From Nitrospiraceae bacterium (GTDB lineage: Bacteria; Nitrospirota; Nitrospiria; Nitrospirales; UBA2166), in assembly GCA_002726235.1 (NCBI GenBank), contig PBSN01000013.1:62001-88988 (forward strand): 26,988 nt of DNA, written 5' to 3'. Made by a program: the position numbers. Positions 18,001 to 21,000 of this stretch are shown piece after piece; within the stretch, counting starts at the first letter, position 1, and every line of letters begins with the position of its first letter.

Positions 18001-21000
18001 CCATCACGAACAACCTGAACCTTCGTATCCGAAGCTTTCTGAATGTAGGCGATGTTTCGAACGTTTGGGCTGGCGATGATGGAACGGGGATTCCACGCGG
18101 AAAGATCAATCGTTGCAAGCAGGGTTTTCGATGCAATCGCACCCTGCGTGTCGCTGGGTTGAGCTGTGGATATTATTGCCGTGCCGAACATGAGGCCGAT
18201 GCCTGCAGCAAGAGCACAAGTCCAGCGGTGGATGTCGCGGTTCATTCCTTATCGTCTCCTGCATCACTCTCGGTCGCGCCAGCGTTACCTGCACTTTTGG
18301 CACAACGAAAGCCGCCGTGGGGAGGGGTATACANGTGCGACCAGCCTGCGCGAAAGGTGGTTGTGAGTACACCCGCCATCGACTTGGCCGATCCCCCGCG
18401 AATGGTATATGCCGAAAGCCTCTTTCCGTGCTTGTTCATTCTTCCTTTCTTGGGACCCTGCGGATTACGCAACGGAGTCTCTTCGTAGTATTCTTCCAGG
18501 TAGAGATCGTTGACCCATTCAAATACGTTCCCTGCCATATGATGCGCTCCGTATGGTGAGACCCCTTTGGGGTAGCTGTCGATAGGAGCGAATGAATCTG
18601 GGCCTTGCCATTCCTGAGGAGGTGTTGCAAATAAAGCATGCTCGTTTGTCGGTGGGGTATCTCCCCATGGATGTGGTCTCCCATCTCTCCCGCGTGCGGC
18701 CTTTTCCCATTCTGCCTCAGTCGGAAGCCGTTTCCCTGTCCATTCACAGTAGCCCTTCGCCGATTTCCACAGAATGCTTGTGACGGGAATATTCGCGTGT
18801 CTGGAAAGATCAATCAGGTAGGAATTTGTTGGGAGGTAAGCTGGGTCCACTTCGCCTCCGCCATTGGCTTTGACGTACTTGTCGTAGCGGGCGACCGACA
18901 GTTCATATTTATCGATGTAGAAGGTGTCTAAATAGACAGTATGATGGGGTCTTTGGTTAAATCCTCCCGATCCAAACCTGACGGGGTTTTGATTTCCCAT
19001 GATGAACTCGCCCGCCGGGACAAGAACCATTGGGGCTCCGTCCTCGCCGATAATTTCGGTGGGGAGTTTTGCATCCTCTTCTGCCGCATGAGTACTGGCA
19101 GGAGCGGAGACGAAAAGGAGAGGCGCTACTATTGNAGCAATCAGGAGTGCTCTTCCAAAACTTTGCCGTTTTTTGCGAATCATTTTTTCCTCACTGATAC
19201 ATATACACAGATCAGGCCTCGCGGGCCTGCCAACCATAAAACACCGGAAGATTGGAGATATCCGACGGTTATCCAACTGAGGGCATCAACACGATACGTG
19301 GCCTGAAGATCGTCCCCCTTCAACAATCCTCAGCTTATCCGGTCTAGGATACACGGTTTATCATGTGGTGTCATCCCCAAGTGGGGCCAATATCACCTCT
19401 AGGCGAGGGTCGTTGCGATCAATTTTTTTGTGAAGATGAATCTCGACAACACGGTTATCGTTTAACTCGAGCGCTTCGCAAATCGCATCCTGTGTAATCT
19501 TGAGTCCACTATCCAAGTCCCGCCGCAATGCGGTGCGCAGATAGAACCACATCGAGAGGATCAGGGCATGAGATTGCAACAGGGTGCGCAGATGCTCTCG
19601 CTTCGGATTTTTGGCGAGCGCTATCAGGACATGTCCCCCAACGAGTTGCTTGTACGAGCGGCTTTCTGCCGAAAGGATGCGGCGACCATTCACTGTTGCG
19701 TACTGGTGATTGATGCTGGGAGGGATGGGAAGTGTTAGTTGGAGCTGATCATCGGACACGAGGCATGCAGGCGTTGGGCGAACCCCCGGGTGTCTTACAG
19801 GAGTTCCATAAAACGCGGTTGGGCGTTTTCAAGCTTTTCTTCGTTCACCTTCAGGTAGTGCCGCCATGCGGACGGACTCCACATCTCAAGCTTTTGATAC
19901 AGGCCAAGCAGAACAATTTCTTGGTCAATGTCGAGGTTCAGGTGTTTTCGCATCTTTCCCGGAATCAGGACGCGGCCCCCTTTGTCGACATCTGACATCG
20001 TCATCTCAGATACAATATGATGCATAAACAGACGGCTCTCCTCTTCATCAAGGCCGGCACGGCTCTGTTCGAGGATTCGTGTCCACTCCGGGTGGGTGTA
20101 GGCCCAGAGGCAGGACTCGGGACCTTTCAGGTATACGAGGCGTTTCCCGTGGTTTTCGAGAATCTCCCGCATGGGTTGCGGAAGTATGAACCGCCCTTTC
20201 TCGTCAAGCTTACAGACGTGTTCGCCAGCAAACATTTCTGCTCCGTAGCCTCATGTAACACATGAGGAAGAACGATGGTAGGCCATGTTGTGCGCACTGT
20301 CAAGTTTTTGTCGCTACTTCACTGTCGGGGTGCAAAGGACGGGATGCCCGATTCATCGAACCGAGTCTTGACGGCTTGCATCATCTCTGGAGTGACTTCG
20401 GAATGTCCGTGTTCGCGTGCATACCGCTCAACACTCTTGATGACCATGCCTCTGGCAAACGATGGAACCCGGTCCAATCGCTCTTGGGCAGGTTTGGTCC
20501 AAGTGAGTTCATAGGCCGGTTCTGCTCCGAACGCGGTGATATGCGGAAACTGGACTAACTCGTTGCCATACTGGCCGGGTTGGTATGTACACGAGGGATC
20601 TTCAGCCAGATAATCCTCGTCCGCGGCGTAGGCACGTGCGCGACAACCGCCGCAGACGTCTCGAAACTCACATTTGCCACAACGCCCACTGAGTAGCGTC
20701 CGGTCGCGGAGCTGATCGAAAACCTCGGAACTGTTCCAGAGGGTGGCAAAGCTCTTTTCTTTGAGGTTTCCAACGCTCACTGGCAGATAAGGGCAAGGCG
20801 TCAGGTCTCCTTCCGGCGAAATTCGGCAGTAATAGATGCCGCAAGGGCATGTCCCTCCAGGGTATCCCTGCAGTAGCGGTGAATCTGATTCCCGTTCGTA
20901 GATGGTGCGTTTAAAATGGGGTGCGCACTTTGCCGCCACGAACATCCTTCCTTTGTACTTCTCCTGCAATGCAGAAAGAGTTTCGAGCATGGCTTCGTAT

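Follow-up and report, generated by a model that had tools for sequence, protein, structure and literature searches.

A gene in a 26,988-nucleotide stretch of a Nitrospiraceae genome (hereafter, the window) probably encodes a homodimeric Holliday-junction endonuclease of the RusA type, one that is catalytically competent and took over the role of RuvC in the ancestor of the Nitrospirales. In this order, ruvC has been deleted from the yebC–ruvC–ruvA–ruvB operon, and a distinct cellular rusA clade has become fixed immediately downstream of mraZ, which has itself lost its place at the start of the cell-division (dcw) cluster. Both the loss of RuvC and the acquisition of this RusA clade are placed on one branch, the stem of the Nitrospirales. 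The best reading of these sequence comparisons is that RuvC underwent non-orthologous displacement, its place being taken by a domesticated RusA that would work with the retained RuvAB and RecG. The features of the window on which the analysis turns are as follows.

19361..19759, minus strand: rusA-like gene, predicted Holliday-junction resolvase (132 aa, GTG start, TGA stop; from the ORF listing and profile matches)
19457..19525, minus strand: catalytic block R79–D101, with R80, D81, D83, K87, D91, and D101 (from alignment to 1q8r and 40 orthologues)
19760..19794, minus strand: mraZ–rusA spacer, 35 nt (from ORF positions)
19795..20235, minus strand: mraZ (146 aa; Pfam MraZ at 96.3 bits, in two stretches)
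20275..20303, minus strand: sigma-70-like promoter match TTGACA-17-TACCAT upstream of mraZ (10/12 in a consensus scan; a pattern match only)

The rusA-like gene and its predicted product

The genome-wide survey's note had described a 132-aa RusA-family gene that adjoins mraZ and is not part of a prophage, a description borne out by the ORF, the Pfam and PHROG matches, the predicted fold, and the housekeeping genes on either side. The Pfam RusA model (PF05866) matched the protein at 34.8 bits (cut-off 22.8), with residues 11–123 covering model positions 1–122 of 124, and PHROG 34, "RusA-like Holliday junction resolvase," matched it at 53.8 bits (E 4.2e-14), placing it in the RusA family by significant full-length profile matches. 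NCBIfam NF007305, an "exception"-type model built for Escherichia coli RusA, scored 32.2 bits, below its cut-off of 200. When E. coli RusA (1q8r) was compared with the product using phmmer, an E value of 2.6e-5 was obtained, and identity between the two proteins was ~25%.

We then examined the active site. The motif RRDLDSGLKITQDA, earlier said to resemble the acidic catalytic motif of RusA, spans residues 79–92. In the alignment with 1q8r (E. coli residue numbers counted from chain position 5), D81 and D83 align with E. coli D70 and D72, while R80, K87, and D101 align with R69, K76, and D91. Among the critical residues of the E. coli enzyme described in PMC10956419, D70, D72, and D91 form the catalytic Asp triad, together with K76, and R69 is DNA-binding; N73 is given a minor catalytic role. 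By alignment, the protein therefore carries equivalents of the whole triad, of K76, and of R69, and these five residues (R80, D81, D83, K87, and D101) show no variation across all 40 orthologues compared. The N73 equivalent is S or G in the clade, so that this residue is not kept.

Structural modeling gave a similar picture. An AlphaFold2 model of the 132-aa protein (pLDDT 89.5, pTM 0.82) was searched against the PDB with Foldseek, and the top seven matches were all RusA chains (1q8r, 2h8c, and 2h8e; TM 0.68–0.81, E 7e-10 to 7e-8, probability 1.0), followed by IspF at TM ≤0.36. The model thus predicts the RusA alpha/beta fold. A homodimer model scored 0.59 versus 0.11 for the best control, with contact agreement between runs of at least 83% and pLDDT of at least 83; of proteins with solved structures, 20 of 30 one-chain pairs reached the mark applied to homodimers, as did 1 of 23 single chains. 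The modeled interface comprises residues 77–83, 86–87, 90, 101–102, and 104–111. The model supports binding and suggests a homodimer that may unite two active sites, although its score may reflect likeness to the already solved RusA dimer.

The protein therefore resembles E. coli RusA of the DLP12 prophage (1q8r, 2h8c, and 2h8e) in Pfam family, predicted fold, and the residues corresponding to D70, D72, K76, D91, and R69, and its predicted homodimer forms through the equivalent strand and helix. It differs in length, at 132 aa versus 120 aa, with three short insertions at residues 41–57 (query positions 41–45, 54–56, and 60 in the 1q8r alignment).

RuvC loss and RusA gain across the Nitrospirales

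The source genome (1.87 Mb, 27 contigs, 90.65% complete) encodes RuvA and RuvB and yielded a single RusA match. No RuvC was found in it with PF02075 or TIGR00228 (0 matches each), and tblastn with four RuvC proteins of relatives gave a best E value of 0.067; unlike in the RuvABC resolvasome, therefore, no RuvC was found encoded with RuvA and RuvB. On its own, this absence is weak evidence because the assembly is 90.65% complete and lacks at least one expected gene, RecG. For RecG, the best match in the source genome was Mfd; however, RecG occurs in 57 of 61 Nitrospirales genomes, including 4/4 of the same genus, so that we rejected a true absence; the missing gene is probably an assembly gap.

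Gene order was more informative. In the source genome and in 5/5 relatives drawn from all four families, yebC adjoins ruvA, and the order yebC–ruvC–ruvA–ruvB is found in 2/2 sister-order genomes of the same class. No ruvC remnant was detected between yebC and ruvA, including in a 522-nt gap in genome G014. Together, HMMs, tblastn, and gene order upheld the earlier statement that RuvA and RuvB occur here without RuvC. No domains other than those of the RuvA and RuvB/AAA types were seen in RuvA (198 aa) and RuvB (351 aa), and therefore neither carries a fused nuclease. We also considered a 127-aa ORF between ruvA and ruvB (C8:479547-479930) as a hidden resolvase and rejected it, as it matched no Pfam family and had no match in 5/5 relatives; in a same-genus genome, ruvA and ruvB lie ~21 nt apart.

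The order-wide pattern proposed in the genome-wide survey's note persisted in a larger sample. RuvC (PF02075) was detected in 1 of 151 Nitrospirales genomes, and this sole copy is phage-type (phrog_159, 98 bits), its neighbor on a contig of 3.2 kb being a RecT-like gene. The Pfam RusA model matched in 147 of the 151 genomes, 132 of them above the cut-off, and our clade profile A1 recovered rusA in three of the four Pfam misses, bringing the count to 150/151. The same note had called the RusA matches weak, which is true of the Pfam scores (19.6–35.2 bits for the core copies) but does not reflect a decayed gene, since the clade profile scored 194–230 bits; we attribute the low Pfam scores to a phage bias of the Pfam model rather than to gene decay. 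In a phylum-wide sample, which contained only three same-class genomes outside the Nitrospirales, RuvC was found in 1/41 genomes inside the order and 152/160 outside it, while RusA of clade profile A1 was found in 41/41 inside and 0/160 outside. Neither RuvC nor RusA was found in G022 (92% complete, 200 contigs), and the rusA frame is broken by a 4-nt deletion in G008, a same-genus MAG (200 contigs).

Within the order, rusA is single-copy in nearly all genomes sampled. The 40 orthologues form one clade, on whose tree the family labels need four changes, the fewest possible, and median dN/dS was 0.17 over 215 pairs. As judged from these sequences, rusA is single-copy, vertically inherited, syntenic, and under purifying selection. 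A few genomes carry an additional phage-type RusA beside phage replication genes and not adjoining mraZ, and these extra copies gave no tblastn match to the 132-aa protein at E 1e-3. Scanning viral contigs with clade sequence patterns revealed no relatives, and matches in the ESM Atlas were confined to a "RusA cluster, Nitrospirota" and viral RusA clusters. Related chromosomal RusA genes, forming a guaA-linked sister clade, occur in other bacterial lineages; tblastn with the window's own MraZ, a search that divergent MraZ may escape, found no mraZ beside them in 80 metagenome loci.

The mraZ–rusA locus

The genome holds only one mraZ, and rsmH lies on another contig rather than beside it. Directly upstream of rusA, mraZ was present in 40/40 orthologous loci and, among 80 named loci, in 79. 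The minus strand of the 35-nt spacer showed no site resembling a promoter or terminator, and because the gap is this short and without such signals, mraZ and rusA are likely co-transcribed in the source genome. One RNA library contig (19658–19831) spans the spacer; runs X3 and X5 gave one contig each, outside rusA, and X2 gave none, the uncovered parts being uninformative. A string resembling the promoter match, AAAAACTTGACA, occurs upstream of mraZ in three same-genus loci (L006, L023, and L044), and a search of 40 loci for repeated 5-mers resembling MraZ boxes upstream of mraZ found no clear shared repeat.

The arrangement varies among families. In families f2 and f4, the reading frame of rusA begins no later than the stop codon of mraZ, and in the same two families the sequence upstream of mraZ belongs to the 3' end of a different gene. 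Three of the four families have a conserved upstream neighborhood that includes a comF-like gene (DZR_2 plus Pribosyltran) and a zinc-ribbon gene. Unlike E. coli RusA, the enzyme in most families has a basic N-terminal extension of ~65 aa, which bears the conserved motif [VILT]R..[ST][YF]R.

A profile scan found no phage families among 27 ORFs scanned in the window, nor were any found in the flanks of six orthologous rusA loci, where the flanking genes are housekeeping genes. The gene is thus not located in a prophage or in a nin-like phage replication module. A pure repair role for RusA gives no account of its constant pairing with mraZ.

Probable displacement of RuvC and its alternatives

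The comparative results on the ruv slot, the shared branch, synteny, and the catalytic residues all agree with the earlier suggestion that RusA is the core resolvase of this order, and we infer that this is its role. In the proposed mechanism, RuvAB, RecG, or both would move the junctions; the RusA dimer would bind a junction and introduce two symmetric, Mg2+-dependent nicks through the carboxylates of D81, D83, and D101 with K87; and the nicked duplexes would then be ligated. Such a substitution has parallels in other bacteria. In E. coli, RusA suppresses ruv defects and can replace RuvABC function, provided that RecG is there (PMC10956419). There, rusA is a silent prophage gene, whereas in the Nitrospirales it is chromosomal, single-copy, and vertically inherited, at a housekeeping locus beside mraZ. 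In Firmicutes and Mollicutes, RecU is described as having displaced RuvC lineage-wide, with RuvAB kept and recU unlinked to ruvAB; this is likewise a non-orthologous displacement, but by an enzyme that differs from RusA in fold and family. Phage RusA-like resolvases (lambdoid nin region, r1t, and SPP1 G44P) belong to the same family as Nitrospirales RusA, and G44P, reported to complement recU partly in Bacillus subtilis, has a long N-terminal extension, as do most Nitrospirales families; the best phage RusA matches are, however, only 27–31% identical to the 132-aa protein.

The RusA of Aquifex aeolicus is also relevant here. Sharples, Bolt, and Lloyd are said to have noted in 2002 that it is chromosomal and without prophage context, and to our knowledge it is the only described RusA of that kind. 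The Aquifex case is limited to a single genome that lacks RuvAB, whereas the Nitrospirales keep RuvAB, have had only ruvC excised, and show an order-wide replacement with fixed synteny. The A. aeolicus enzyme resolves junctions in vitro (cited in PMC10956419), and the absence of RuvAB from Aquifex is given in Rocha 2005.

We weighed several other explanations. RusA was previously considered the only resolvase candidate in the genome. This holds for RecU (0/101 Nitrospirales genomes), Hjc (2/101, both marginal), and endonuclease VII (6/101, sporadic), the Hjc match in the source genome itself having been discarded (11.4 bits, E 0.43, implausible ORF); it does not hold for RuvX (YqgF), which is present at 142 bits. 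That RuvX is the resolvase of the Nitrospirales, with RusA secondary, nevertheless seems very improbable to us. YqgF has been suggested for genomes without RuvC and RecU (Rocha 2005), and a 2024 paper reports that Mycobacterium smegmatis RuvX processes branched DNA. However, RuvX was also found in 13 of 14 control genomes, carriers of RuvC and RecU included, and is therefore not specific to RuvC loss; Rocha 2005 likewise describes YqgF as accompanying RuvC or RecU in the majority of genomes, so that they are not simple analogues. The fixation of RusA on the same branch would also stay unaccounted for. An enzyme of a family not yet recognized could instead do the core job, leaving RusA as a conserved accessory nuclease for stalled forks, incoming DNA, or phage DNA. 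HMM searches detect described families only, the comF-like and zinc-ribbon neighbors in three of four families might point to a connection with DNA uptake, and related chromosomal RusA genes exist in other lineages, all of which would suit this explanation. We consider it unlikely, though less so than the other alternatives, as RusA gain coincides exactly with RuvC loss, no conserved gene of unknown function lies near ruvAB (the 127-aa ORF being without relatives), neither RuvA nor RuvB is fused to a nuclease, and the junction-resolvase active site of RusA is invariant.

The pairing with mraZ raised the question of whether the two genes form a regulator–nuclease or antitoxin–toxin-like pair, in which MraZ, with its AbrB/MazE-like fold, restrains a nuclease of growth or division control. 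Both genes are small and adjacent in 40/40 loci, Pfam describes MraZ as "putative antitoxin-like," a weak PHROG antitoxin match (26.8 bits) was obtained, and the overlapping or abutting frames in f2 and f4 fit such a pair. Typical toxin–antitoxin modules, though, are sporadic and multi-copy, while this pair is single-copy, order-wide (150/151 genomes), vertically inherited, and under purifying selection, a distribution unlike the sporadic, mobile one of type II systems; nor would the coincidence with RuvC loss be explained, and we give the idea very little weight. Hardly more credible is the view that no dedicated resolvase is needed, with junctions undone by branch migration or reversal (RuvAB and RecG) or by dissolution, dimers handled by site-specific recombination, and RusA dispensable. 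The retention of RuvAB and RecG would allow this, as would the frameshifted rusA in one MAG and the lack of a copy in one genome; however, each of these two exceptions is a fragmented MAG in 200 contigs, and a dN/dS of ~0.17 together with catalytic residues invariant across four families indicates that the nuclease function is selected.

Displacement of RuvC by RusA could be extended further, and here we are tentative, regarding the following as possible but rather doubtful. The Nitrospirales may possess a third bacterial junction-resolving system, consisting of RuvAB and/or RecG with a domesticated RusA that is coupled transcriptionally, and in most families perhaps translationally, to the division regulator MraZ, which would have been moved from the dcw cluster for that end. 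In most families, the new N-terminal arm would tether RusA to DNA or to the branch-migration motor, resolution would be timed with division, and a wider, hitherto unnoticed cellular RusA clade would exist in several lineages.

RuvC, or RecU in Firmicutes, is regarded as a near-universal part of the bacterial recombination core, and here a whole order, including Nitrospira, has RuvAB without RuvC. The main comparative survey explicitly excluded RusA on the grounds that it was rare and associated with prophages (Rocha 2005). A 2012 paper left open 27 organisms that have RuvAB yet lack both RuvC and RecU, and its Table S1 includes a RuvC-negative row for Ca. Nitrospira defluvii; beyond that table, our search found no literature on RusA in Nitrospira or Nitrospirales, or on RusA with mraZ. 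Nitrospirales RusA would account for Ca. Nitrospira defluvii, one of those 27 cases, and would correct annotations that call the Nitrospirales recombination-deficient. The order would thus offer a clear example from nature of how a phage-type enzyme can be domesticated and take on a housekeeping role that looks essential, and the fixed mraZ–rusA pair, with mraZ outside the dcw cluster, suggests a connection of junction resolution with division control that can be tested.

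The rusA gene and its predicted active site

The RusA-family gene and its upstream partner mraZ are arranged in the window as follows:

19361-19759, minus strand: rusA, 132 codons, GTG start, TGA stop
19795-20235, minus strand: mraZ (Pfam, 96.3 bits), ending 35 nt upstream of the rusA GTG
Upstream of mraZ, minus strand: sigma-70-like match TTGACA-17-TACCAT, a pattern match only

The genome-wide survey's note had described a 132-aa RusA-family gene, and the ORF and its family matches agree with this; the string quoted there, RRDLDSGLKITQDA, occupies residues 79-92. Pfam RusA (PF05866) matched at 34.8 bits (cut-off 22.8), with residues 11-123 covering model positions 1-122 of 124, and PHROG 34, "RusA-like Holliday junction resolvase," matched at 53.8 bits (E 4.2e-14), while the NCBIfam model of Escherichia coli RusA gave 32.2 bits, under its cut-off of 200. 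Since the Pfam and PHROG matches are near full length and the NCBIfam score is far under the cut-off, the protein is a divergent family member and no close copy of the E. coli enzyme.

When the protein was compared with solved structures using phmmer, E. coli RusA (1q8r) was aligned to residues 7-129 (E 2.6e-5). Counted along this alignment, R80, D81, D83, K87, and D101 correspond to E. coli R69, D70, D72, K76, and D91, respectively. According to a 2024 review (PMC10956419), cleavage depends critically on D70, D72, K76, and D91, and R69 serves in DNA binding. All five residues, and 26 further positions, are invariant in an alignment of 40 orthologues from the four families of Nitrospirales (A1). 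In contrast, N73 of the E. coli enzyme, which has a minor role, is S or G in the order's RusA. This conserved active site suggests that the protein is catalytically active.

An AlphaFold2 model built on A1 (mean pLDDT 89.5, pTM 0.82) was compared with the PDB using Foldseek, and the top seven matches were all RusA chains (TM 0.68-0.81, probability 1.0), followed by matches with TM of at most 0.36. Modeled as two copies, RusA scored 0.59 against 0.11 for the best control, with pLDDT of at least 83 and at least 83% of contacts shared between runs. Among proteins of solved structure, 20 of 30 one-chain pairs and 1 of 23 single chains reach the mark used for such models. The predicted interface (residues 77-83, 86-87, 90, 101-102, and 104-111) takes in the catalytic helix. 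Because a RusA dimer has already been solved, the two-copy model's pass may reflect likeness only.

The gene had been placed outside any prophage, and indeed no phage family was found among the scanned window ORFs. The others were housekeeping genes or had no assignment, and included a molybdopterin oxidoreductase, cytochromes c, two ThiF/PALP/JAB sets, FGE-sulfatase-like proteins, a PD40 propeller, and a radical SAM/SPASM enzyme; an Rfam scan of the window gave no match. At 11507-16476, two neighboring ThiF (E1-like) and PALP (cysteine-synthase-like) gene pairs occur with a Prok-JAB gene. A ThiS domain is present at the N terminus of one PALP protein, and the second PALP protein has a NinF-like zinc-ribbon match; this set may be akin to a duplicated sulfur-carrier-protein cysteine pathway. 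The stretch 22800-26988, in which eight single Ns fall within 22825-23607, has no Rfam match, and its scanned ORFs at 22819-23313, 24007-24504, 24685-25215, 25564-25836, and 25882-26280 matched no Pfam family.

Reciprocal distribution of RuvC and RusA

RuvC had been reported as not found in any Nitrospirales genome examined, which held for 150 of the 151 genomes of the order analyzed here. The one PF02075 match, of 24-25 bits in G038, is to a phage-type gene, whose score with PHROG 159 ("RuvC-like Holliday junction resolvase") was 98 bits. Next to it lies a gene for a RecT-like annealing protein (139.5 bits), and the 3.2-kb contig that carries both (L002 = G038:C78:1-3244) looks like a phage recombination module. 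RusA had been said to occur in most genomes, including all closed ones, and was detected by Pfam in 147/151 (132 of these over the cut-off), in 139/142 high-quality genomes, and in every genome listed as a single contig (39 by our count). Three of the four Pfam misses were recovered by the A1 profile (G139, 196 bits; G011, 193 bits; G008, two adjacent pieces), which found no match in the fourth (G022, 92% complete, 200 contigs). In G008, a same-genus MAG (88% complete, 200 contigs), a 4-nt deletion splits the rusA frame in a variable stretch at about codons 52-54 (L135/L137, G008:C86:8278-8663), so that this copy is a recent pseudogene unless the deletion is an assembly error.

We also analyzed a phylum sample of 201 genomes, 41 from the order and 160 from outside. 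RuvC was detected in 152/160 genomes outside the order but in only 1/41 within it, whereas the A1 profile matched 41/41 genomes within the order (194-230 bits) and 0/160 outside, so that RuvC and the order's RusA are mutually exclusive by lineage in this sample. All three same-class genomes of other orders were RuvC-positive. This reciprocal distribution maps RuvC loss and RusA gain to one branch, with a closest outgroup of three genomes only. Record titles bear out the taxon: among the best 80 of 585 relatives in a species-genome collection, every title reads Nitrospirales, Nitrospiraceae, Nitrospira, or Nitrospirota, bar one record (L065) titled "uncultured Nitrosospira sp." with the isolate name NOB2; Ca. 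Nitrospira defluvii FP929003 is also among these 80.

The window's own assembly (1.87 Mb, 27 contigs, 90.65% complete) encodes RuvA and RuvB on contig C8; no RuvC was found in it by PF02075 or TIGR00228, and tblastn with four RuvC proteins from phylum relatives reached at best E 0.067. The gene order on C8 is yebC, ruvA, a 980-nt spacer, and ruvB, and yebC is likewise followed directly by ruvA in five relatives from all four families (gaps of about 5 to 522 nt). Two same-class sister-order genomes, by comparison, have an unbroken yebC-ruvC-ruvA-ruvB operon, and two genomes from other classes have ruvC-ruvA-ruvB. The empty slot between yebC and ruvA therefore shows that ruvC was excised from a conserved operon, which carries more weight than a search without a match. 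The order's yebC-ruvA spacers held no detectable remnant of ruvC. In the ruvA-ruvB region (L138, C8:478086-481595), the spacer of about 980 nt holds only a nonconserved 127-aa ORF, and in the same-genus genome G004 the two genes lie about 21 nt apart.

A single-copy gene linked to mraZ

Nearly all genomes of the order carry one rusA. Extra copies in three genomes (G092, G110, and G102) scored 48-58 bits with Pfam, were not matched by the window protein in tblastn, and lack an adjacent mraZ; phage replication genes adjoin two of them, and these extra copies serve as an internal contrast to the core gene. In a maximum-likelihood tree of the 40 orthologues and 49 outgroup proteins, in which columns are few and many forks open, the orthologues formed one group (SH-aLRT 85), and family labels required 4 changes, the minimum possible (support 100 for f1, the family of the window's genus, and 99 for f4), as expected of vertical inheritance. 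Purifying selection is evident in the RusA core, with a median pairwise NG86 dN/dS of 0.17 (range 0.06-0.43; 215 pairs with dS 0.05-2).

In all 40 loci from the four families, mraZ lies directly upstream of rusA on the same strand, as it does in 79 of 80 named loci, a set that may overlap the 40 in genomes; in the exception, the contig extends just 170 nt upstream. Neighbors beyond the pair vary by family, with comF-like and zinc-ribbon genes upstream in f2, f3, and f4, and the conserved unit is thus mraZ-rusA. The window's genome has a single mraZ, which stands apart from the dcw cluster: rsmH is on a different contig (C8:44067-44981) with no mraZ ahead and is followed by ORFs sized as expected for ftsL, ftsI, and murE. 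Outside the order, mraZ precedes rsmH in 5/5 genomes, where MraZ is 27-34% identical to the window's, compared to 46-92% within the order. Two histories would fit: mraZ left the dcw cluster, or mraZ and rusA came in as a unit and the earlier mraZ disappeared.

A pattern scan found no promoter- or terminator-like site on the same strand between mraZ and rusA. In one RNA library (X1), three short contigs match the window with full identity: 19452-19602 within rusA, 19658-19831 across rusA and mraZ, and 19811-19961. Since they come from one study and DNA carry-over is possible, this hint of expression is weak. The two genes are probably co-transcribed.

RusA proteins are normally about 120 aa long. 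In f2 (25/25 loci) and f4 (5/5), no stop interrupts the rusA frame upstream as far as the mraZ stop codon or past it, and an ATG often comes within the 12 codons after that codon (19/25 in f2). The stretch between this stop and the RusA core (loci L008-L046) encodes a basic N-terminal extension of about 65 aa, absent at window 19760-19794. A basic motif, [VILT]R..[ST][YF]R, is present in 18/25 f2 and 5/5 f4 loci, and PIRI in 3/6 f3 loci; neither motif occurs in the four loci of the window's genus. Independent gene calls in a protein library include the extension motif in 8 of 38 proteins with the core motif. A small conserved ORF also ends just before mraZ in f2 and f4 loci (L035:4972-5250 and equivalents); it matched no Pfam family at E 1e-4 and no PHROG at 1e-5, and its C terminus (…IPAFKLGKEWRF…DLEQWI…) resembles excisionase-family HTH domains.

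Candidate resolvases and the proposed displacement of RuvC

RusA had also been put forward as the only resolvase candidate. This stands with respect to RecU (none in the window's genome, 0/101 in the order), Hjc (a subthreshold 11-bit match in the window's genome; 2/101, both marginal), and Endonuclease VII (6/101, scattered, in a search of unproven sensitivity whose control rang in 0/14 reference genomes), but not to RuvX/YqgF, which the window's genome encodes (142 bits). As RuvX also rings in 13/14 control genomes, it is not specific to RuvC loss. RecG was not found in the window's assembly, where the best match was Mfd (C8:320742-324206). Since RecG is present in 57/61 genomes of the order, including 4/4 of the same genus, its absence here is probably an assembly gap, and a caution against building much on one genome that is 90% complete.

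Known phage RusA proteins share no more than 31.5% identity with the window's, and viral contigs searched with the clade's patterns held no relative. In a profile search of 1.84 billion representatives, a threshold of E 1e-3 gave 3933 relatives and one of 1e-30 gave 49. A2, the outgroup clade closest to the order's RusA, shows 35-55% identity to the window protein; this sister clade, on metagenome contigs (L156-L235), has a C-terminal tail that is conserved. On the 12 long contigs examined, A2 genes have housekeeping neighbors, among them guaA (directly downstream in 4/12), homoserine dehydrogenase, FtsH, and argininosuccinate synthase, with no phage genes around them; tblastn with the window's MraZ found no mraZ beside them. 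Cellular RusA may therefore extend beyond this order.

Rocha et al. (2005) excluded RusA from their survey for being rare and associated with prophages, and Zhang et al. (2012) listed 27 organisms with RuvAB and neither resolvase, suggesting an "unknown resolvase or ... RecG-RusA"; their Table S1 has Ca. Nitrospira defluvii as RuvC-, RecU-, RuvA+, and RuvB+ and Thermodesulfovibrio yellowstonii as RuvC+. Full-text literature, mostly outside subscription journals, yielded no paper linking RusA with this order or with mraZ.

The reading we favor, and consider fairly likely, is that at the base of Nitrospirales a domesticated RusA took over from RuvC, a nonorthologous displacement. RuvAB and/or RecG would move the junctions, and RusA, a presumptive partner of either and possibly an essential protein, would resolve them in RuvC's place.
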